A DNA stretch of 64,000 nucleotides. Origin: a bacterium (lineage in GTDB: Bacteria > Hinthialibacterota > Hinthialibacteria > Hinthialibacterales > Hinthialibacteraceae). Positions 43,735-54,086 of this stretch are shown piece by piece. Where the stretch lies: the NCBI GenBank assembly GCA_963662285.2, contig CAXXMV010000002.1:384001-448000 (forward strand), in the 5' to 3' direction. The notes beneath the pieces were generated by a model that was not told where the DNA came from, searched no databases, and saw only the letters and a list, made by a program, of their open reading frames with translations. The translations under genes were made by a program, and so were the position numbers. Numbering within the stretch: the first letter of the stretch is position 1; each line of letters opens with the position of its first letter.

Positions 43735-45222
43735 TTATTCACCCTCAACATTAAGTGATGGCCGACGTAAAAACCCGAAAGCTATTGTTATGGTTGCCAG
43801 GATTAATAAAACTGCCGAGATGGGGCGGCTTAAAAACATCAGGCTGTTGGCATCTGGCAACAATAACGCCTGACGCAAGTTCCGTTCGGCCATTGGGCCA
43901 AGGATCATGGCTAACACGACTGGCGAGGCCGGGAATCCATAGCGCTTCATGCCATAACCCACAGCGCCCATGGCGATAGCCACCCATACATCGAACATAC
44001 TGAATTGCAGCGCATAGGCGCCGATTACGCTGAGTACGCAAATGATGGGTAATAGTACGCGTTTATCGACCAGGATGATGCGGGCGATCACCCGCACGGA
44101 TAACAGTCCGATGGTCAGCATGGCGATATTGGCCAGCATCATGGCGCCGAAGATCGGATAAACCACTTCGGGATGCTCTTGAAACAACATGGGGCCGGGT
44201 TGCAAGCCCTGTACTACCAACGCGCTGAGCATGACGGCGGTTACTGCATCACCGGGAACGCCCAGGGTCAACATAGGGATCATGGCGCCGCCAGTGGCGC
44301 CGTTATTGGCCGCTTCGGCGGCGATTATGCCTTTGGGTTCTCCCTGTCCGAATCTTTCTGGATGTTTATCTATGCGTTTGGCTTCGTTGTAACTTACGAA
44401 TGCCGCGATATCGCAGCCCGCGCCGGGCAGGCTTCCGATAAAGGTTCCGATTAATCCAGAGCGCAGCAGAGTGAATTTATATTCCTTAAACTCCTGCCAT
44501 GACGGAAGCGAGAAGCGGGGGCTTTCGGTTTTACCTTCTCTACTCCATCCCTGCGATATTTCATAAAAAACCTGGGCGAAGGCGAAGAGTCCGATTAATA
44601 CTGGAATGAAACCTAATCCATCATATAAATTCGGTTGACCAAAACTGAAACGTGGAATCCCCGCAATTGGATCAAGACCAATTGTGGCGATCAACAATCC
44701 AAAGAAACCTGATAGTACTCCCTTTAGAATATCCTTACTGGATATAGTTACGATCATGCTCAAGCCGAATATGGCCAGGGCGAAATATTCTGGATAACTG
44801 AACCTAAGCGCAAAGCTCGATAGCAGCGGGCTGAACAGAGTAAGCGTAATAGCGCTGATCATTCCTCCGGTGAAGCTAGCGCATGCGGCCAGGGCGATAG
44901 CGTGCCCCGCCTCTCCCCGTTGGGTCATGGGGAAGCCGTCGAGCACGGTTGCGGCGGCGGCTGGAGTGCCTGGCGTGCAGATCAGAATAGCGGCGATTGA
45001 ACCGCCATAGATAGCGCCAACGTAGATGCCGATCAGCATGGCCATGCTCGATTGGGCGTCCAATCCCAGGCTTAGGGTGAACGGTAGCAGCAGCGTCACG
45101 CCCATAGTTGCGGTTAGCCCCGGCAAGGCGCCGAACAGGATGCCTAGCGCAACGCCCGAAAAAACCAGACATAGCATGGATGGACTGAAAGCAAGTAGAA
45201 AATTGGAAATTATTGAATCCAT
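43735..45222 (-). CDS. tctA: Tripartite tricarboxylate transporter permease TctA
   Basis: GALPGL, GAIYGGSI.AIL...PGTP, DGFPM, EAANN, P.LTLGVPG, G.QPGP. True start ATG 45222 overlaps the tctB stop (TAATG). Confidence 0.95.
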   Translation of the reverse strand: MDSIISNFLLAFSPSMLCLVFSGVALGILFGALPGLTATMGVTLLLPFTLSLGLDAQSSMAMLIGIYVGAIYGGSIAAILICTPGTPAAAATVLDGFPMTQRGEAGHAIALAACASFTGGMISAITLTLFSPLLSSFALRFSYPEYFALAIFGLSMIVTISSKDILKGVLSGFFGLLIATIGLDPIAGIPRFSFGQPNLYDGLGFIPVLIGLFAFAQVFYEISQGWSREGKTESPRFSLPSWQEFKEYKFTLLRSGLIGTFIGSLPGAGCDIAAFVSYNEAKRIDKHPERFGQGEPKGIIAAEAANNGATGGAMIPMLTLGVPGDAVTAVMLSALVVQGLQPGPMLFQEHPEVVYPIFGAMMLANIAMLTIGLLSVRVIARIILVDKRVLLPIICVLSVIGAYALQFSMFDVWVAIAMGAVGYGMKRYGFPASPVVLAMILGPMAERNLRQALLLPDANSLMFLSRPISAVLLILATITIAFGFLRRPSLNVEGE

Positions 45223-45734
45223 TATGAACCGAACCACCCCGGTAAAGGAACGTTTAATATGCGTTGGAATACGAAATATAATGCGAAGGTAACGCTGATA
45301 GTCCACACTGCAATGCGCAATGGTCTGCGTTCGCCAAGCATTACAATGGTGACGGATAGAAATAGCAGAGTGGCTGCAATATAACCAAGAACGGGTATGC
45401 CTGCTGCGTACAATGCCAGCGTTATAAATGTTATTAGCGCTAAACGCTTGTTTTTTTGTCCGGCGATATGTGCTTCGCTGGATGTATGATGCCGCCATTT
45501 AATACTTATACCGCGCACTATGAGAATTATGCTCAATGGCCCCATGAAGCATGATAGCAAGCGGGGGTAAAATTGCGGCCCGAAGTTTAACTCTTCCCGC
45601 GCAAAGGCGCCGCTGCTGATATAGGCGGTCAGAGCCATAGTCAGCAGTAATGCTCCGATAATAATATCCGCCCAGGGTTGAACTATGTCTTGATCAGTGT
45701 TTGGTTTTATTGGTTGATTATTAATTGTATTCAT
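45222..45734 (-). CDS. tctB: Tripartite tricarboxylate transporter small subunit TctB
   Basis: GPQFYPR, four to five TM segments, LGY..AT, F...L.VPLP. Confidence 0.9.
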   Translation of the reverse strand: MNTINNQPIKPNTDQDIVQPWADIIIGALLLTMALTAYISSGAFAREELNFGPQFYPRLLSCFMGPLSIILIVRGISIKWRHHTSSEAHIAGQKNKRLALITFITLALYAAGIPVLGYIAATLLFLSVTIVMLGERRPLRIAVWTISVTFALYFVFQRILNVPLPGWFGS

Positions 45735-45744
45735 ACCATTGGTA

Positions 45745-46704
45745 TTACAAATCGAGTCCTTCAATCAGTTCAGCTATTGATTGAGACTCGCTGCGCAGGA
45801 AGGCTGCGAAATCTTCTGAATTCCGGTAATGCAGTCCAAGCATCATTTTCTGCGCCGTCTCTTGGAATGCTGGAGCATCAAAGGCTTTCTTGAATCCTTC
45901 TTCTAACTGATTAACGATAGGCTCTGGAGTGTCTTTGGGAACCGCCAGCCCCCGCCAGGTGGCATGTACTAAATCAAGGCCTAGTTCTTTGAAAGTGGGG
46001 ACATTAGCAAGATTGGCGAATCGCTCGTCTGACATAACTGCTAAACAGCGCAAGTCGCCGGATTGCACGAATTGTAAAACTTCCGCCGGGCTGACCGCTA
46101 CGGCGCTTAAATGCCCGCCTGCTAATTGAGTGACTGCCGGGCTGGCGCCTTCATGTGGGATATGAGTGAATTTCGTCCCGGTTAGTTTTTCCAGTTTTAC
46201 GGCGCCCAGATGCCAGACTGCCCCAGGTCCGGAATTGCCGATGGTGATCTGTTTAGGATGCGCTTTGGCGTATTTCAAGAAATCATCCAACGTTTTCCAT
46301 TCAGAATCAGCTTTAATGGTTATGGCCGCCGGGTCCTGGTTTAATTGCATGAGCGCTTTGAAATCCGTGTCATCTATTGGAGCTCTTCCCAGTGGTTTGT
46401 AAGAACAAAGTTCATAAGTGATCATGGTTACGGTGTAACCGTCAGGCCGGGCTTTCATGCCGTAGGTATGACCTACGGTACCAGAGCCGCCAGTTCGGTT
46501 TATTACATTGACGGCGACGCCGAAAACTTTTGATGCTTCCTGGGCTAGAGAACGGGCTAAAGCGTCGGTGCCCCCCCCGGCTTTCCAGGGCACGACGATA
46601 TTTATAGATTTAGACGGGAATGTGGCATCCGTTGGAGCGCAGGCGGCAAATGTTATCGCTATCGATAAAGAGATCAGGACGAGTCGAAATATGTATTTGT
46701 TCAT
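45745..46704 (-). CDS. tctC: Tripartite tricarboxylate transporter substrate-binding lipoprotein TctC (Bug family)
   Basis: Lipobox FAA-C, FP.K.I..VVPWKAGGGTD, PDGYT, VPTFKE.G, WRG..VPK.TP. Confidence 0.94.
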   Translation of the reverse strand: MNKYIFRLVLISLSIAITFAACAPTDATFPSKSINIVVPWKAGGGTDALARSLAQEASKVFGVAVNVINRTGGSGTVGHTYGMKARPDGYTVTMITYELCSYKPLGRAPIDDTDFKALMQLNQDPAAITIKADSEWKTLDDFLKYAKAHPKQITIGNSGPGAVWHLGAVKLEKLTGTKFTHIPHEGASPAVTQLAGGHLSAVAVSPAEVLQFVQSGDLRCLAVMSDERFANLANVPTFKELGLDLVHATWRGLAVPKDTPEPIVNQLEEGFKKAFDAPAFQETAQKMMLGLHYRNSEDFAAFLRSESQSIAELIEGLDL

Positions 46705-46957: not shown

Positions 46958-47707
46958 ATGAAGATGAAAAGATTCGTAACAATCGCAATGATTTTCGCGA
47001 TTCCTCTAGTGTTGGTTGCGTCGCCTGCCATGGCGCAGAAATACAATCCTGCAATCAATCCACCTGCAAAACCATTTAATACCCTCACAGATCAAGAAAA
47101 AGCGGATGGATGGGAACTATTATTTGATGGCAAGACGCTTAAAGGTTGGGAAAGAGACGAGAATTTCCCCGGCGAATGGAGCGTTACCAGCGACGGCATC
47201 ATTTTTAGCGCCAAGGGAGCGACTCACCTGTTCAGCGCTAAAAAGTACAAAGATATTGATTTGTCCTGGGATGTATGCGCTTATGACGTCGGCGTGCCTG
47301 ATGTAGATGCACCTATGGCCAGCCCGCGCATGGGCAACTCAGGCGTTTTCGTCCGCGGGATCAAATCCGGCGGTTCATTCCCCCAAGGTTATGAAGTCCA
47401 GGTTGATCCTTATGATATCAAAAATCCAACCGGCGGCGTCTATGGCAAAAATCCTGGCACCCTTTTGGTTACTGAAGATGGCAAATGGAAACCAGAAGCT
47501 TTCTTCCAGATTCACGAAGGTAAATGGATGCATCAACGCGTGCGCATCGAAGGCAATCGTTTGCAGATCTGGGTTAATGGCGAAAAAACCATGGATTGGA
47601 CCGATCCAGATAAATCATTCCCCGAAGCCGGTTATATCGCCCTGCAAAATCACCACAAAACAGATGTAGTTCTTTTCACGAACATCAAAATTAAGGTGTT
47701 GGACTGA
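46958..47707 (+). CDS. Secreted DUF1080 family protein
   Basis: Signal peptide (AMA|Q), NTLT..EKADGW.LLFDGKTL.GW, GNSGVF, GYEVQ, GYIALQNH, F.NIKI. Confidence 0.92.
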   Translation: MKMKRFVTIAMIFAIPLVLVASPAMAQKYNPAINPPAKPFNTLTDQEKADGWELLFDGKTLKGWERDENFPGEWSVTSDGIIFSAKGATHLFSAKKYKDIDLSWDVCAYDVGVPDVDAPMASPRMGNSGVFVRGIKSGGSFPQGYEVQVDPYDIKNPTGGVYGKNPGTLLVTEDGKWKPEAFFQIHEGKWMHQRVRIEGNRLQIWVNGEKTMDWTDPDKSFPEAGYIALQNHHKTDVVLFTNIKIKVLD

Positions 47708-47763
47708 TATTAACTTGATTATGATTGGCTGCATGTTCAATCATAAATCATACTGAATATGTT

Positions 47764-47795
47764 AAAGAGGCGGGATTCTTCGATCCCGCCTCTTT
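47764..47795. terminator. Bidirectional terminator
   Basis: AAAGAGGCGGGAT-tcttcg-ATCCCGCCTCTTT. Confidence 0.88.
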
Positions 47796-47826
47796 CTGTA
47801 TCTTAATACCATTTTGAATGAATCGG

Positions 47827-50802
47827 TTAATTTGAATCCTCTTTGGTTGGTTCCTCGATCTTGATGACGCCTAAATCACGCACTTCTCCCGGTTGACCGG
47901 GGGCGATGGGGATGGTGGTTAATAATTTACCATATCCTCCGGCATCTTTGATTTTTATGATTCCTCCTTCTACCGGAACATGCTCTAATAAAAAAGTACC
48001 ATCTTTTAGATCGATTTCCGTTCTATGAAAAGCACGGTTTAAATTGTTGATGCCCAAACGGTCTTCGTGGATATTAAAATTATCCATTGTTATTTCAAAT
48101 AGAACATACGGTGGGTCTATATAATCTAACATTGTTCTCTCATAGATTAACTGCCCTTTTATTGAAAATGATTGAGTGTCATGAGTGAGAACAATCGTTT
48201 TTTCTTCATCCCTTTGAAGAGTAAAACCTTCGGATAATGTCGGCGCCGTATTTTCCGTACGTACAGATAAAAGGAAAGGACCGTCTGCAATTTCAATTTT
48301 GTCAAAATGAAATGCTCCTTCGGGATGCGAAACGTTCTGAACCAGGTAATCTCCGAATCTTGGATTACTCGGCAGTAAAAATATTGTATAGTCTTTTATG
48401 GGATTGTTATCATTCCCTAAAACAGTACCAGCAATGGATGCATAGCCATCATTGTACTTTTTCAAGACGATTTTAATATCTTTAGCAGCCCATTGAGTAA
48501 ATTCTTGACTGAATGCAAAATAATCATCCTTTGCTCTAATTGACAAGATGGTTTTTTCAAAATCATCTTTTTGGGGAATTTCCAAAAATGCATTGTAAGA
48601 ATTTTCAAAATTCAGAACAAATTGACCATTCTCATCGGTCCATGAATGAGCCCAGTAATCATAATCTTTACTCCTGGATTTCAAAATCCCTTGTATCGGA
48701 ATTCGGCTTAAAGGATTTTCTTTTTCATCTACCACCACACCGGCAAAGTAATCATTATTAACTTCCAGAACAAAATCCAAATTAGTCACTGGAATGTTTG
48801 GCTGAATGATTATATTCTTCTTTATCCCTCTATAGTAACCCTTCTTTTGTTGGGTATATATATTATATTCACCAGAAATAACCGCCCGTTGATATTTACC
48901 CTCCGCATCTGTTACTGTCCATATATCTTCCTTCTGCTTAATTTTTGGCTGAAAATAAACACCGATGTTTTCCATTGGTTTCCCAGAAGAATCAACTACT
49001 TTACCTTGAACCAGTGTTTTGGGATCGTATATAATCTCGATGTTCTTAATTTCTTCTCCAAGAGAAGGATCTATCTCGATTTGTCCTGAATCACCATACA
49101 AGGGATGATGGGATTGAAGGTAAAACTCATTATCCGAAACATAATAATCCAATATCAGTTTGAAGCGCCCTTCATTATCTGTTTTAAGAGACTGATCGAT
49201 TTTATTTTTGGGATATACTTTTGCGTAATTATGTTCTACGTCGCGCCAGATAAAAATTTCACATTTTTGTAAAGGTTGTCCTTCACTCAAACAAACCCGC
49301 CCAGAAACGCTCCATGATTTCTCTAAATAAAGGTTTATATTTTCAACCTGAGTTTCATTTTCTAATATAAGAATCGGATTCGGTTCCGGTTTGATCTTTG
49401 AATAGAGTAAGGGCGCAATCTCATGCCAAGAGATACTATTCCTTTTATATTCTGCATATATATCTGAATCCTTTCTATAATAATAAGGTGATTGAGTTAT
49501 GTAATTGATATGTGGATATATGGCAATAACGTAGGAACCGCCCGCCAACGAGTTGAAAAGGTAACTACCATCGGAATTAGTTGTTGTTTGCGCGTCTGGA
49601 GGTACGTTATACCTTTTTTTATCATAGTTCCAAAATACTTGTTTGTTTTTTAAAGTTTCGATATCGTATGCGATTACTTTTATATCACTGACTGGTTGTC
49701 CGCTATCTTTCTCAAAGACTCTCCCCGAAACAGAATATTCTCTATTCTCCAACGCCAGAGTTACTTCATGCCGGTCTTTAACAAGTTTGATTTCACATTG
49801 TGACTTTTCCCCGCTTGTATACCATACATGCTCAGCATAAATCACATATTCACCAGGAGGAACATCCTCGAAGGTAGTGAAACCGGCAGTATCGCTGGTT
49901 TCGCTGATCATCATAATGCTTCCAGTACCGGGTTTTGATTTCAAGGTAACTTTGGCGGAAAAAATTGGTTCGGATTCTACGTTTTGCACATAAACGATAA
50001 TCCGTCCTTTGGTTCTTAAATGCATAGTCGCTGGTTGTAATTCGGCATCTACATGAACAGCTTCTTCATGGATCAAATATCCAGCAGCGCTTACGCTGAC
50101 AAGATAACTACCCGCTGCGATAGGAGAGAATAATGCTCCGCCGTTTTCGCTAGTAGAACGGTCTTCCAAATCGGCGCCATCGACGCGCAACGTATCAGTG
50201 GTTGGAGTAATAGTGACTTTTGCTCCAACTACTGATTGTTCATCCTGGTTAATCACATTGAGTTGTAATGCCGCTTTGACGGCAACCAGCATTTCAAGAC
50301 TGTTGTCACCTGATGTCAGATTGCAGTCTAACTGGTTTCCAAACGTAGTGTTGTTGTTAGCGATAGTAACAGTAGTATTTACTGCATTCAGCCTATTTAG
50401 AGTAAGCGTTCCATCTTTATCCAGCGACTGTTGAAGTGCGTCATCTCCATTTTGGATGAATACTTGCTCGTTTGATAAGGGTTGACCTGACATATCACGA
50501 ACCATCAGGATGAGATTGGCTGTTTCCGGCTCGGTGACAATGGTTGACGATTGATCATCTGATTCGCCTGGCTGTTCATTGGCGTTGACAATGATATTGC
50601 TGGAATCAACCGTGATTTCTTCGCCTGCTTTGATCGATTTTTTAATCAATCCATCGTTACTGACAAACTGTACTTCCCCGGATTCCACTGAAATAGTCAT
50701 CGACTTGGGCGGCGCAGCCCATAAAGACAGTCCATGAATACACAATACCAACAACGCAATCACCAACGAATAATATGGGGAAAATCTTTTATATTTATAC
50801 AT
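47827..50802 (-). CDS. Large secreted protein with multiple carboxypeptidase-regulatory-like beta-sandwich repeats and an N-terminal FecR C-terminal-like segment
   Basis: RBS AGGAGA and signal peptide; repeats of the form SGRV....G.P....TD..G.F/Y....L..G.Y; residues 35-65 MTISVESGEVQFV...IKAGEEITV. Confidence 0.8.
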   Translation of the reverse strand: MYKYKRFSPYYSLVIALLVLCIHGLSLWAAPPKSMTISVESGEVQFVSNDGLIKKSIKAGEEITVDSSNIIVNANEQPGESDDQSSTIVTEPETANLILMVRDMSGQPLSNEQVFIQNGDDALQQSLDKDGTLTLNRLNAVNTTVTIANNNTTFGNQLDCNLTSGDNSLEMLVAVKAALQLNVINQDEQSVVGAKVTITPTTDTLRVDGADLEDRSTSENGGALFSPIAAGSYLVSVSAAGYLIHEEAVHVDAELQPATMHLRTKGRIIVYVQNVESEPIFSAKVTLKSKPGTGSIMMISETSDTAGFTTFEDVPPGEYVIYAEHVWYTSGEKSQCEIKLVKDRHEVTLALENREYSVSGRVFEKDSGQPVSDIKVIAYDIETLKNKQVFWNYDKKRYNVPPDAQTTTNSDGSYLFNSLAGGSYVIAIYPHINYITQSPYYYRKDSDIYAEYKRNSISWHEIAPLLYSKIKPEPNPILILENETQVENINLYLEKSWSVSGRVCLSEGQPLQKCEIFIWRDVEHNYAKVYPKNKIDQSLKTDNEGRFKLILDYYVSDNEFYLQSHHPLYGDSGQIEIDPSLGEEIKNIEIIYDPKTLVQGKVVDSSGKPMENIGVYFQPKIKQKEDIWTVTDAEGKYQRAVISGEYNIYTQQKKGYYRGIKKNIIIQPNIPVTNLDFVLEVNNDYFAGVVVDEKENPLSRIPIQGILKSRSKDYDYWAHSWTDENGQFVLNFENSYNAFLEIPQKDDFEKTILSIRAKDDYFAFSQEFTQWAAKDIKIVLKKYNDGYASIAGTVLGNDNNPIKDYTIFLLPSNPRFGDYLVQNVSHPEGAFHFDKIEIADGPFLLSVRTENTAPTLSEGFTLQRDEEKTIVLTHDTQSFSIKGQLIYERTMLDYIDPPYVLFEITMDNFNIHEDRLGINNLNRAFHRTEIDLKDGTFLLEHVPVEGGIIKIKDAGGYGKLLTTIPIAPGQPGEVRDLGVIKIEEPTKEDSN

Positions 50803-50833
50803 GATTTATCTCCTGATTTAGTTTTTACTGACG

Positions 50834-51424
50834 TTATTCATCTAGTCTTATATTGAACACTGTTCCTATCACCTCAATTTTACCAAACGGTGTTTGAACC
50901 AACATCAGCCGTTCAGTATCTTTGGCGGCTTCCACCCGGATCGCGCCTCCCTGCAGTGAGATATTCCGCTCGGATCCAAAGCGGACGGCGATCTGAGTTT
51001 CTGGTGAGCAGCTCAATAATGATTGGTCTTTCAAAAGAATTTTGGCCGAAATTCCTTTGGGAACCATAACAAAATTCCCGCTTTGTAATTCATTGAGCCA
51101 CAAGCGGGAAACTTGCGTTTCTTGTTGGTTGGATTCATAAACGAATTGGACTGATTGAACTGGTCCTGACACAGGTTGAACGATGTAGAATAAGCCTATA
51201 ATAACGAAGATTAGCAGCGTATAGGCTGCCGTATGACTCCAAGTTAATTGTGGGTGAAATAACCATGAAATAACAGATAATGGAGAACGGTTTTTTTTTG
51301 AAAATCGCGCTGAGGCTTCTTTCAAAAAACGTTTTTTTGCCAATTCCCGATTGTAAGAAACAGCGCATTGGTTGATGCTATCGCGTAATTTCTCTTCGAA
51401 TGGCGTTAAAGAATCTCTATTCAT
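50834..51424 (-). CDS. Membrane anti-sigma factor with C-terminally truncated FecR domain
   Basis: Cytoplasmic N-terminus, one TM helix, then A.I.L.DQS.L...PETQI......I.LQGG.I..E.AK......VQTPFG.IEVIGTVFNI and stop. Overlaps the sigma stop (ATGA). Confidence 0.8.
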   Translation of the reverse strand: MNRDSLTPFEEKLRDSINQCAVSYNRELAKKRFLKEASARFSKKNRSPLSVISWLFHPQLTWSHTAAYTLLIFVIIGLFYIVQPVSGPVQSVQFVYESNQQETQVSRLWLNELQSGNFVMVPKGISAKILLKDQSLLSCSPETQIAVRFGSERNISLQGGAIRVEAAKDTERLMLVQTPFGKIEVIGTVFNIRLDE

Positions 51425-51987
51425 GATACTCGTTCCTCTATAATCGGCTGAATGGATTCACGCAGGCGTTTCCTAGCGCGACCCAGTAAGTTTTTTACAT
51501 GATCAATCGTGATTTCAAGCGTATTTGCAATTTGTTGATGAGATTGTTCTTCGAGAAGCCGCATTATAATTGCAGTACGTTGCAGAGGAGGCATGTTTTG
51601 TATTTCAGATTCAATAGTCTGACGAATGCGTTTTTCATGTAAATGTGTTAATGGGCATTTTTCATCCTGGTTGACATCATCCACCGTTGGAGCAATTTGA
51701 TGCAGCGATACGGTTAATAAGCCCTTTTTCTTCATACGATCAATGCAGCGGTTTCGTACAATACGGCGTAAATACGCTGAAAGAGTACCCTGCTCTTGTT
51801 TATAACGGCCTGAGCGTAAAGCCTCTAAAAAACTAATAAGCGATTCTTGTATGATATCTTCGGCGTCGTTCACCTGGCCTAAAAGCATATAACTAAGCCG
51901 CATTAGTGAATCGGCGTAGCGTTCAAAGAGTTCTTCGAATGCGCCGGGATAGCCCTCTATGAGCCTGTTTTCCAATGAATCGTTCAC
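51421..51987 (-). CDS. ECF RNA polymerase sigma factor
   Basis: AFEELFERY, DAEDIIQE, YL.RI.RN.CID, region 4 MPP.QR.AI......S.QQIA..L......VK..L.RAR..LR. Confidence 0.95.
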   Translation of the reverse strand: MNDSLENRLIEGYPGAFEELFERYADSLMRLSYMLLGQVNDAEDIIQESLISFLEALRSGRYKQEQGTLSAYLRRIVRNRCIDRMKKKGLLTVSLHQIAPTVDDVNQDEKCPLTHLHEKRIRQTIESEIQNMPPLQRTAIIMRLLEEQSHQQIANTLEITIDHVKNLLGRARKRLRESIQPIIEERVS

Positions 51988-52024
51988 GAGCGCTCCATCT
52001 AATTGTTTATTGCATCTTAACCTT

Positions 52025-52052
52025 TATACGATAATTTCAGAAAAAGGGTAGC
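52025..52052 (-). promoter_or_regulatory. Putative autoregulatory ECF promoter
   Basis: Minus strand GCTACC-CTTTTT...(16-nt spacer)-CGTATA, about 40 nt upstream of the sigma start; resembles the generic ECF layout with a T-tract and a CGT -10. Confidence 0.45.
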
Positions 52053-52166
52053 AAAGCAATTTTATTACTTGATATGAATGTAAATTGAGATTGGATTCAT
52101 CTTGTAATGATAAAGGAATAAATTTGAGGGAAAATGTGATTATAAACGAAAATACGGCTCTATTGC

Positions 52167-54086
52167 TTATCGAACGATTTGATAGACCACAATTTGTCCG
52201 GGATTATCTGGATAGGCGTCGAAAACCATTTGTAGATGCGCTTGGTTTTTATCCATCCATTGTTGAAGAAAATCGCCTAGCGGCCAGCCGTAGGGGCCAT
52301 AGGATTTTCGTAGACGGTTTAATTCTGACTGGTTGAACAATATATGGGTGATGGTTCGATCCAAACCTTTTTCCAGGGGATGGTGGTTGAATACGGTTGG
52401 CGCGATGGCTTCAAAACGCGCTCCGTAGGATTGCGCTTCTCCAACGAATAACACCCGGCCAACGCGGCGGCCTTCCTCTTTTTGCAGGTTCAGCCAATCG
52501 ATGGCTCTGTAATGAGGAACCCTTTTAGCCAGGTACATATCTTCCAGCATAGGTTGGACGAGATAACCAGCGGTTTCATCTTTTAGTATTATGGTTGTGA
52601 TGCCCAAAATTTGTATGGCTGCTATTACTAGAGCGAAACCTCTAATAGCAATATCGGCGCCGTCCCTGGATAGGACATAAATTCCATAGCCGCCCAGCAG
52701 TGCCATCAGGGGCAGGATCGATGCCAGGAAGCGGTCATTTCTCTGCGTCAAAAAGAACCAGGCGCAATATGCTGTGGTCATGAATATTATTGACCTGTAT
52801 ATGGGGTGGTTTCTGGCAGTTTTCCAAATCAATGGAATGCCCAGCAGCCATAATGCCGAGAATCCTAATGGGATGGATTGAGCAAGGCTTTTCTGAAATG
52901 GCAGTGACATTATATCCAATGTAATGTTCCATGTGGAACTTAATTTTGGCGCATGAACCAGCGAGAACATTTCGGAAAAGAAATCCGGTGAATTTACGAA
53001 GTATGGCGTAAGCAGTGGGAACACAGGATTTTGATATAAAAACCAATTACGGATTGCCCAAGGCAGGAAGATCGCAACGCCGCCGCATAAAATCAGGAAT
53101 AATGGAACAAATATGCGTTTTTGAAGCGTGTTCTTTATATCAAATAATATCATTACACAGAAAGGCAAGCCGATGGATAGCGCAGCGATATATTTTGATC
53201 CAAAAGCGAAACCCAACGCAGCCGCCATCATTACCGCATCTATCGGGCGTTTTTCGGTTCGGTATCGCTCATAGGCCATCAGTAATATTATGGCTGAGGC
53301 GCTTAATGCCAGATCAATGTTGGCCTGGATTATCAGGCGCTGGGTCAGTCCGGTAGCCAGAAAAAAAAGAGGCGCCAACAGGTTATTGGAAGGTATGCCC
53401 CATATTCGGCCTAGCCTCCATACCGCTAAAGCCGCAATGCAGGCGAATAGCAGATTTATGGCAGTGCATCCAGCCGGGCTTCGCGAGGCCAGAGGCCACA
53501 TATAAAGCAATTCCGTATTCATGGGAAAAGCGGCGTAGACATTATATGGAAAGGCAACCCATGATCCTGTTTTTATATAATGATCCGGCGCCGCGAGATG
53601 GTATTCATGCGCATCATACCCCACTGGGGGTAAAACGGCGGCTATGATTCCAAGTAATAACACGACAGTTAATAGGGTGAGTTCCAGGCGGGATAGGCTC
53701 TGTAGATCAAGTTTGTAATTCGCTAAATCAATTATTCTGTTGCGCCACCAACCCCAGGAGGCGAGAATTAAGATTAGAGATGAGCCGTAGATCATCCAGG
53801 GGAAAGCCAGATGGATGGTTAATAATATAAACGCATAGGCGCTGGCCAGGCACAGAGATAGAAAACTGGCGTAAATCAGGCGCTCAATATTATCAAGTGA
53901 TTGGTTCGATGAAATCCGGTCTAGCAACAGGTTGGCAATTGGAAAGAATGATAAAAGTGGAAGCAGACCCAACAGCAGCGCCCGCAGATGTAATGTCGGC
54001 AATAGCAGCCAGGGATTGGCGTATAACAGGACGCCAAGAATGATTATCGCTAAGGCAAGCGTGAATATGGGTTGCTTTGGTTTCAT
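52167..54086 (-). CDS. Polytopic GT-C type membrane glycosyltransferase-like protein
   Basis: Many TM segments, PP.GYDAHEYHL..P loop, P...E.LY, G.KY, PW.IRN....NPVFP, RFL...P. Confidence 0.7.
   Translation of the reverse strand: MKPKQPIFTLALAIIILGVLLYANPWLLLPTLHLRALLLGLLPLLSFFPIANLLLDRISSNQSLDNIERLIYASFLSLCLASAYAFILLTIHLAFPWMIYGSSLILILASWGWWRNRIIDLANYKLDLQSLSRLELTLLTVVLLLGIIAAVLPPVGYDAHEYHLAAPDHYIKTGSWVAFPYNVYAAFPMNTELLYMWPLASRSPAGCTAINLLFACIAALAVWRLGRIWGIPSNNLLAPLFFLATGLTQRLIIQANIDLALSASAIILLMAYERYRTEKRPIDAVMMAAALGFAFGSKYIAALSIGLPFCVMILFDIKNTLQKRIFVPLFLILCGGVAIFLPWAIRNWFLYQNPVFPLLTPYFVNSPDFFSEMFSLVHAPKLSSTWNITLDIMSLPFQKSLAQSIPLGFSALWLLGIPLIWKTARNHPIYRSIIFMTTAYCAWFFLTQRNDRFLASILPLMALLGGYGIYVLSRDGADIAIRGFALVIAAIQILGITTIILKDETAGYLVQPMLEDMYLAKRVPHYRAIDWLNLQKEEGRRVGRVLFVGEAQSYGARFEAIAPTVFNHHPLEKGLDRTITHILFNQSELNRLRKSYGPYGWPLGDFLQQWMDKNQAHLQMVFDAYPDNPGQIVVYQIVR

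Follow-up and report, generated by a model that had tools for sequence, protein, structure and literature searches.

Sequence profiles point to a FecR-type anti-sigma domain divided between two separately exported proteins

INTRODUCTION

The window analyzed here is a stretch of 64,000 nucleotides from a bacterium of the lineage Hinthialibacterota, of which only metagenome-assembled genomes are available (assembly GCA_963662285.2, contig CAXXMV010000002.1, positions 384,001 to 448,000). It carries, on the minus strand, an operon encoding an extracytoplasmic function (ECF) sigma factor, a 196-aa membrane protein and a 991-aa repeat protein. Based on profile comparisons, the 196-aa protein (hereafter the anti-sigma half) ends within a FecR domain, and the strands that would complete this domain lie near the N-terminus of the 991-aa protein (the partner). 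One FecR domain thus appears to be divided between separately translated and separately exported proteins, as an earlier reading of the letters alone (the original prediction) had proposed; a naturally fused homologue, profile alignments, the joining of the two pieces and the recurrence of the split in paralogues and other genomes all agree with it. We consider it probable that the pair forms a two-gene FecR-type anti-sigma factor, whose pieces assemble in the periplasm and whose partner protein controls the release of the sigma factor.

In cell-surface signaling, the central relay is a FecR-type anti-sigma factor. FecR cleaves itself at G181/T182, and the C-fragment remains attached and protects the N-fragment from further cleavage; release of the C-fragment starts a cascade that ends with RseP, and a construct lacking the C-fragment undergoes cleavage and gives constitutive signaling (Yokoyama 2025, PMC12036975). 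FoxR has the corresponding site at G191/T192, and in this protein, too, the N domain interacts and cooperates with the C domain (PMC11637429). When isolated, the subdomains of PupR lack stability (PMC7186176). According to a speculation of Yokoyama et al., it is self-cleavage and not the use of separate loci that lets the complex fold properly (PMC12036975).

RESULTS

Genes of the operon and the junction between them

The three ORFs (open reading frames) of the predicted operon were all recovered. The first gene (51421–51987, minus strand) starts with GTG and encodes a 188-aa protein with Sigma70_r2 (E 2.2e-13) and Sigma70_r4_2 (E 4.2e-12) matches in Pfam and a score of 87.1 bits against the NCBIfam sigma70-ECF model TIGR02937 (cut-off 42.9). 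With sigma-70 regions 2 and 4 only and about 190 aa, it has the size and domain content of an ECF sigma factor. Its stop codon overlaps the start codon of the anti-sigma half (50834–51424, minus) in ATGA. The anti-sigma half consists of about 64 cytoplasmic residues, one predicted transmembrane helix (residues 65–82; 51179–51232, minus) and the first two thirds of a FecR domain. The helix is an 18-residue uncharged run in the translation, and 54 of 71 relatives have such a run at the same position. The Pfam FecR family (PF04773) matches residues 123–194 (50843–51058, minus) with E 4.7e-11 and 43.4 bits against a gathering cut-off of 24, and the match is above the gathering score in all 71 relatives. 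It covers profile positions 7–82 of 97, so that the chain does not hold a complete FecR/CJM domain; the remainder is assigned to the next protein.

The anti-sigma half ends in ...VIGTVFNIRLDE, followed by a TAA stop codon. Gly187-Thr188 (codons at 50861–50866, minus) align with the autoproteolytic Gly-Thr site of FecR and FoxR, and this pair is invariant in the 25 aligned split proteins as well as in all 63 rows of the alignment that includes classical FecR. Beyond it, the protein keeps the whole strand from T188 to E196 and stops 9 residues after Gly-Thr; the genetic break falls in the next hairpin loop. The FecR domain had been predicted to be cut at G187-T188. Its truncation stands, as the Pfam match shows, while the place has to be moved 9 residues downstream. 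If self-cleavage by an N-O acyl shift occurred at G187-T188, it would release just a 9-residue peptide.

A 31-nt spacer (50803–50833, minus), read from the sequence, lies between the anti-sigma stop codon and the ATG (50800–50802) of the partner gene (47827–50802, minus). As predicted, this gene has its own ribosome-binding site (AGGAGA at 50809–50814, 6 nt 5' of the ATG) and a different reading frame, the offset being one base (51424-50802 = 622). Within the spacer the anti-sigma frame has stop codons, and the partner frame is shut two codons before the ATG. The open frames do not overlap at this junction; therefore, frameshifting cannot join the two ORFs.

Profile comparison of the two pieces with classical FecR

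In hhalign, 71 split anti-sigmas aligned with 42 classical FecR proteins at a probability of 99.7% (E 1.8e-25), over template columns 117–200 of 351 only. The N-termini of 25 partners aligned with the same template over columns 199–243 (probability 89.9%, E 1.7e-6). For single and joined pieces, a separate hidden Markov model (HMM) was built from 43 classical FecR proteins only. Against this model, the anti-sigma halves alone end at positions 82–93, and the partners alone begin at positions 81–87 in 25/25 cases. When the pieces were joined by script, the match was extended to positions 102–135 in 24 of the 25 pairs, as would be predicted for a divided domain, with a mean gain of 7.9 bits; shuffled partners added 0.9 bits and gave no such extension. 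Shuffled partners began at 81–87 in 26 of 500 trials and reached at most 5.8 bits, a score exceeded by 18 of the 25 real partners.

Moreover, a 40-position HMM of the partner motif was run against 50,839 six-frame ORFs. Its four own paralogues ranked first, followed by residues 278–314 of a fused protein described below (E 1.1e-3) and then by the genome's ordinary FecR proteins, at the ends of their FecR domains. On the solved chain 4M0N/4M0H, the anti-sigma profile lies on residues 23–101 (E 4.7e-7) and the partner profile on residues 107–147; the latter match is weak alone (E 0.55) and directly adjoins the anti-sigma match. A single-sequence search of the PDB with the anti-sigma half found no FecR structure, whereas the profile search found one. 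A MAFFT alignment of the partner fragments placed them on the FecR internal repeat and was discarded. From the profile alignments, the HMM and the model of the fused form, the FecR-completing strands are assigned to partner residues 32–71 (50590–50709, minus). Within this segment V39, G42 and V44 are invariant in all 25 partners despite an overall identity of 13–28%, and the motif follows the hydrophobic segment of the partner by about 5–17 residues in every case. Collectively, the profiles indicate that the periplasmic segment of the anti-sigma half and the partner N-terminus are homologues of opposite ends of a single FecR domain.

Several observations weigh against this assignment or against the role proposed for the anti-sigma half. 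The partner N-terminus alone has no Pfam FecR match at E <= 10, which is expected because the piece covers only about 15 profile positions. Individual partners score low against the HMM (1.0–17.8 bits), and in one of the 25 pairs (L030) joining left the match unextended. The FecR fold is internally repetitive, and the anti-sigma half has an internal V.V..G.V-like pattern of its own. The two halves co-diverge with a Mantel r of 0.39, a value that is expected for linked genes and proves nothing. Furthermore, the cytoplasmic N-terminal part of the anti-sigma half matches anti-sigma N-domain families in 0/71 relatives (E <= 0.01), and the cytoplasmic N-termini failed to align with the classical FecR N-terminus in hhalign.

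Fused relatives and a structural model

A natural single-chain form of 1361 aa is represented by L019/P0052 and by a second cluster representative, P0020. It reads ...GT.F.V.V, a 7-residue loop,.V.V..G.VLL...L.AG.. and then repeats, and Pfam FecR covers positions 5–96 of 97 on L019/P0052. The fused proteins belong to the same family and have the repeat array, and their anti-sigma part is 36–41% identical to that of the split form. In contrast to the split form, they are one chain without a second hydrophobic segment, and they make up only 2 of the best 83 representatives of the cluster search reported below. In an AlphaFold2 (AF2) model of the fused FecR region, the mean pLDDT (predicted local distance difference test) of 10-residue blocks is at least 93 over residues 31–160. 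The model shows a strand (110–116) after Gly-Thr, a loop at the split point and five strands within residues 122–159. The top four Foldseek matches of this model are 4M0H_B, 4M0H_A, 4M0N and PupR 6OVK (E 5e-8 to 2e-7, probability 1.00, root-mean-square deviation 1.9–2.7 Å over 123–124 columns); the fifth has E 0.04. In a quick tree, the fused forms were nested in the split clade without strong support, and the approximately unbiased test did not reject all split forms as one clade (p 0.668), so the fused form may be ancestral or re-fused.

Both fused representatives have an Arg-Arg pair 10–17 residues before the membrane helix (residues ~60–90); with n = 2, these are too few for an inference on the twin-arginine (Tat) pathway. 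An Arg-Arg pair within 14 residues of the helix occurs in 10/54 split proteins, compared with 13/33 classical ones with such a pair before the helix, and the comparison is uninformative.

Recurrence of the split and the question of an artefact

A FecR scan of the window's 7.29-Mb genome gave nine matches, four of which stop at profile positions 83–89. These four belong to operons of a sigma factor, a short FecR protein and a large protein in which a hydrophobic segment is followed by V.V..G.V. Counting the window's own, 19 of 41 genomes have anti-sigma homologues, all within one order (14/19 in family f1, 2/4 in f2, 2/2 in f3 and 0/15 in other families). A phmmer search with the anti-sigma half against the ORFs of 39 loci returned 35 ORF matches from 33 distinct loci, of which 27 are split, 1 is fused and 5 carry ordinary longer FecR proteins; of 27 loci examined, 26 have a sigma ORF upstream of the FecR-half gene. 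The stop and the next start are -71 to +175 nt apart in the 24 split loci measured, the junction script having found no start in two further ones, and the relative frame is 0, 1 or 2 in 7, 9 and 8 of them, respectively. The partner N-terminus profile matches 21 of 35 genomes of the phylum (f1 15/19, f2 3/4, f3 2/2, other families 0/9), with 1–6 copies per genome. By comparison of coordinates, 33 adjacent anti-sigma/partner pairs were found in 16 genomes besides the window's. A related-locus search with the single anti-sigma protein found one locus only, in a metagenome-assembled genome. In three loci with ordinary FecR proteins of 300–330 aa (L003, L037, L039), the next gene is prepilin-type, with an N-terminal methylation motif, and not a TonB-dependent receptor.

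Among 1.84 billion public cluster representatives, an HMM of the periplasmic half gave 41,843 matches at E <= 1e-3 and 1,048 at E <= 1e-10. In the best 83, 79 stop no more than 21 residues after the Gly of Gly-Thr, and the rest are the two fused proteins and two other architectures. One of the 79, P0078 (323 aa), carries a duplicated stretch of ~100 residues, perhaps through faulty assembly; it and two further representatives, P0079 (940 aa) and P0085 (691 aa), have 3–4 FecR-like stretches in one chain. The names of eight relatives were looked up, and three are named: two small proteins, as "hypothetical protein" and "FecR domain-containing protein", and a fused one, as "carboxypeptidase regulatory-like domain-containing protein". 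The link between the small and the large gene is absent from the annotation of these relatives.

With the two ORFs just 31 nt apart and in different frames, the split might be put down to a sequencing or assembly error, a pseudogene, frameshifting or stop read-through. However, the same split recurs in four diverged paralogous operons and in the 33 pairs elsewhere, over the whole range of gaps and in all three relative frames, and no partner lacks a start codon or a hydrophobic export segment of its own. At the window junction the open frames do not overlap. In two runs of one sample, which may be that of the source, contigs cover 50300–51500 with 0 differences. A read-through product would moreover gain a second membrane segment, which would place the repeats in the cytoplasm, the wrong topology. 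The original prediction held that a simple stop or frameshift error does not account for the junction, and this withstands both the comparison of loci and the check for an assembly artefact. We regard an artefact or recoding as practically excluded, to the extent that sequence data can exclude it.

Export segment and repeats of the partner protein

Residues 10–29 of the partner form a hydrophobic export segment in the translation (50716–50775, minus). A possible signal-peptidase site (LWA/AP) is present in the window copy only. In the partners of most relatives, a short basic start is followed by an uncharged run of 16–26 residues, mostly about 20 (G, S, T and Y were counted as uncharged), with no obvious signal-peptidase site. 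This suggests that the segment may be an uncleaved N-in, C-out membrane anchor in most relatives; if so, both halves of the FecR domain would be tethered near the membrane. The predicted signal peptide is thus borne out as a hydrophobic segment, with a possible cleavage site that relatives do not share. Similarly, the missing FecR continuation does lie at the N-terminus of the partner according to the profiles, and the words "mature" and "secreted" that had been applied to it are doubtful for an anchor-like protein.

A linker and an array of CarboxypepD_reg (transthyretin-like) repeats occupy residues ~95–991 (47830–50520, minus). Pfam PF13620 matches the partner at E 3.3e-42 in 6 stretches, which places it among proteins with repeated transthyretin-like domains, and of 10 partner fragments from other loci, 9 match this family as well. 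A homologue search with partner residues 1–110 returned the query alone. The window partner and its paralogue on contig C8 (from 219484) share a block of ~100 aa at 82–93% identity and are about 10–50% identical outside it (mostly 20–45%), which suggests that gene conversion may have occurred between their repeats.

Candidate promoter, apparent modular origin and gene neighborhood

A candidate ECF-type autoregulatory promoter, GCTACCCTTTT followed by a 12-nt spacer and CGTATA, lies at 52025–52052 (minus) and ends 37 nt before the sigma start codon. The pattern GCTACC[CT]TTT with CGT[AC]T 10–13 nt later precedes the sigma gene of the window as well as those of L004, L025, L027 and L028, so that the candidate promoter noted originally is conserved in five loci. 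In its strict form, which was defined post hoc after the sequences had been inspected, the pattern has only two occurrences in the 7.29-Mb genome, each preceding a sigma gene of this type. A genome-wide regulon search with the pattern gave no convincing additional targets, and a pattern this narrow could miss some.

The window operon (50834–52052) is itself a chimera of two operon types. Its sigma factor, promoter and anti-sigma N-terminus resemble those of L004, L025, L027 and L028, while its periplasmic FecR half and partner resemble those of L011, L016 and L007. Judged from these resemblances, inheritance appears to follow two modules, one comprising the sigma factor and the anti-sigma N-terminus, the other the FecR half and the partner; the chimeric operon could have arisen by a crossover close to the membrane helix. 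Based on gene order and this co-inheritance, the 196-aa protein probably binds the sigma factor.

The original prediction noted the lack of a TonB-dependent receptor in the locus, and PF00593 has zero matches on the window's contig (C2), the genome's 7 matches being on contigs C1 and C6. No STN or FecR_C family of Pfam matched the anti-sigma half or the partner at E <= 1. Compared with classical FecIRA-type systems, the locus shares the adjacent, co-oriented ECF sigma gene, and lacks STN/FecR_C, an N-terminal FecR-type sigma-binding domain and a cognate TonB-dependent transducer.

Downstream of the partner gene, between convergent genes, a 14-bp inverted repeat (47764–47795, strand not assigned) forms a hairpin that is likely the operon terminator. 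Rfam gave zero matches within window positions 47400–52400. The convergent neighbor (46958–47707, plus) encodes a secreted protein of the 3-keto-disaccharide hydrolase family (PF06439, E 1.4e-38). At 43735–46704 (minus) there follow a TctC-type tricarboxylate transporter receptor (E 5.9e-51) and two ORFs that have numerous hydrophobic segments. The ORF immediately 5' of the operon (52167–54086, minus) encodes 639 aa, is rich in hydrophobic segments and has no Pfam match at E <= 1e-3.

DISCUSSION

A proposed mechanism for the two-gene anti-sigma factor

By analogy with self-cleaved FecR and FoxR, we infer that the two proteins assemble in trans and act as a switch. The cytoplasmic part of the anti-sigma half would probably hold the co-transcribed ECF sigma factor. 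Translation of the partner would be separate, and the hydrophobic segment at its N-terminus would direct its export; the ~40 residues after this segment would supply the five final strands of the FecR domain, with a flexible linker and the long transthyretin-like repeat array behind them. In the periplasm, the halves would join by strand complementation to give the equivalent of the N- and C-fragments of self-cleaved FecR or FoxR, the 196-aa protein corresponding to the N-fragment and the first strands of the partner to the start of the C-fragment. With the partner strands in place, the anti-sigma half would be protected. If the strands were pulled out, or the partner were degraded or missing, a periplasmic protease could attack the incomplete domain and an RseP-type site-2 protease could then act, so that the sigma factor would be freed and, acting at the conserved promoter, would transcribe the operon that encodes it. 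The genome does contain an RseP-like M50 protease, outside this region. Sensing would fall to the repeat array, with no TonB-dependent transducer involved; the array might respond to a ligand, to force or to proteolysis, or the signal might be the mere supply of partner.

Comparison with known systems

The arrangement resembles that of self-cleaved FecR and FoxR in that a FecR domain with an invariant Gly-Thr adjoins the membrane and an ECF sigma gene lies directly upstream. In those proteins the membrane-bound N-fragment and the periplasmic C-fragment stay associated, as is proposed here, and the C-fragment shields the N-fragment from site-1 and RseP cleavage (PMC12036975, PMC11637429). In contrast, the two chains of the present system come from two genes and not from autoproteolysis, and the break lies 9 residues, or one strand, beyond Gly-Thr. 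The second chain brings an export segment of its own, whereas that of FecR and FoxR is carried across with the N-fragment by Tat, and it runs on into ~900 residues of transthyretin-like repeats. Furthermore, STN/FecR_C, FecR_N and a TonB-dependent transducer are all lacking here. PupR CCSSD (6OVK/6OVM) and BDI_1681 of Parabacteroides distasonis (4M0H/4M0N) have the same fold as the model of the fused relative. However, these solved proteins are single chains whose C-terminal STN subdomain binds the transducer (PMC7186176), while in the split family the last five strands are on another protein and STN is absent.

Separate periplasmic proteins that act on a membrane anti-sigma factor have precedents. 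In the pairs CnrY-CnrX and VreR-VreA, such a protein informs or shields the anti-sigma factor, and VreA is a receptor-like partner without a TonB-dependent barrel. In RseA-RseB of the E. coli sigma-E system, a separate periplasmic protein likewise shields the membrane anti-sigma factor, and RseB is discussed in this way in the FecR study (PMC12036975). In all three pairs the partner binds a complete domain, whereas here it would contribute strands to the fold of the domain itself; a relationship in sequence to these pairs is not expected. The literature searched does not describe a split FecR; the ECF reclassification paper (PMC7826278) is silent on it in its main text, and the supplementary tables of that paper might list the neighborhood.

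Alternative readings of the pair

How the repeat array would act on the FecR domain allows more than one answer. We suggest, only tentatively and as an idea with less than even prospects, that it is a receptor-free, TonB-independent tripwire whose five N-terminal strands are extracted from the FecR domain of the anti-sigma half. A membrane-tethered stalk of Ig-like domains would span the periplasm; pulling, ligand binding or proteolysis would extract the strands, and their extraction would be the trigger of regulated proteolysis. If this is right, the 1–6 diverged copies would be orthogonal channels with a pairing specificity set by the complementing strands, and FecR self-cleavage would be dispensable for the two-chain state, contrary to the view that the halves first fold as one chain. 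With the same structure, the operon could instead be a homeostatic loop in which the repeat protein is the main product and the system gauges the supply or export of that product. The anti-sigma half would be unstable until capped, and the sigma factor would stay active until enough partner had reached the membrane and shut it off. That the strict promoter pattern occurs only at two such sigma genes, with no other target found in the 7.29-Mb genome, is what such a loop would predict, as are the constant co-transcription of partner and regulator as neighbors and the constitutive signaling of FecR without its C-fragment (PMC12036975). However, the narrow, post-hoc pattern may miss other targets, at least 6 repeats over ~900 residues are a costly way to report mere presence, and the 1–6 diverged copies per genome fit several input channels better; we hold this loop to be unlikely, though not far-fetched.

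The pair might also no longer interact, the truncated FecR half being self-sufficient and the partner motif a leftover of an old gene fission. In favor of this, the motif is short and scores weakly alone. A leftover would decay, however, yet the three invariant residues persist in all 25 partners at 13–28% identity, the motif keeps its similar short distance from the hydrophobic segment, and the genes are still adjacent in the 33 pairs of the 16 other genomes. In addition, the isolated periplasmic halves of PupR are unstable in vitro (PMC7186176), and FecR without its C-fragment is constitutively degraded (PMC12036975). A loss of interaction is therefore improbable, and we favor the two-gene anti-sigma factor assembled in the periplasm.

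Significance

In the split family, the two-chain state that FecR reaches by self-cleavage would arise through gene fission and separate export, with the C-fragment replaced by a giant repeat protein and with no outer-membrane transducer or TonB involved. Judged from its genes, the family would be a natural counter-example to the idea that the complex owes its proper folding to self-cleavage and not to separate loci, and one worth testing. It would make it possible to ask how FecR halves fold and pair after separate export and which features of the trigger are general. Finally, matched strand pairs from its members could serve as orthogonal, engineerable sigma switches.

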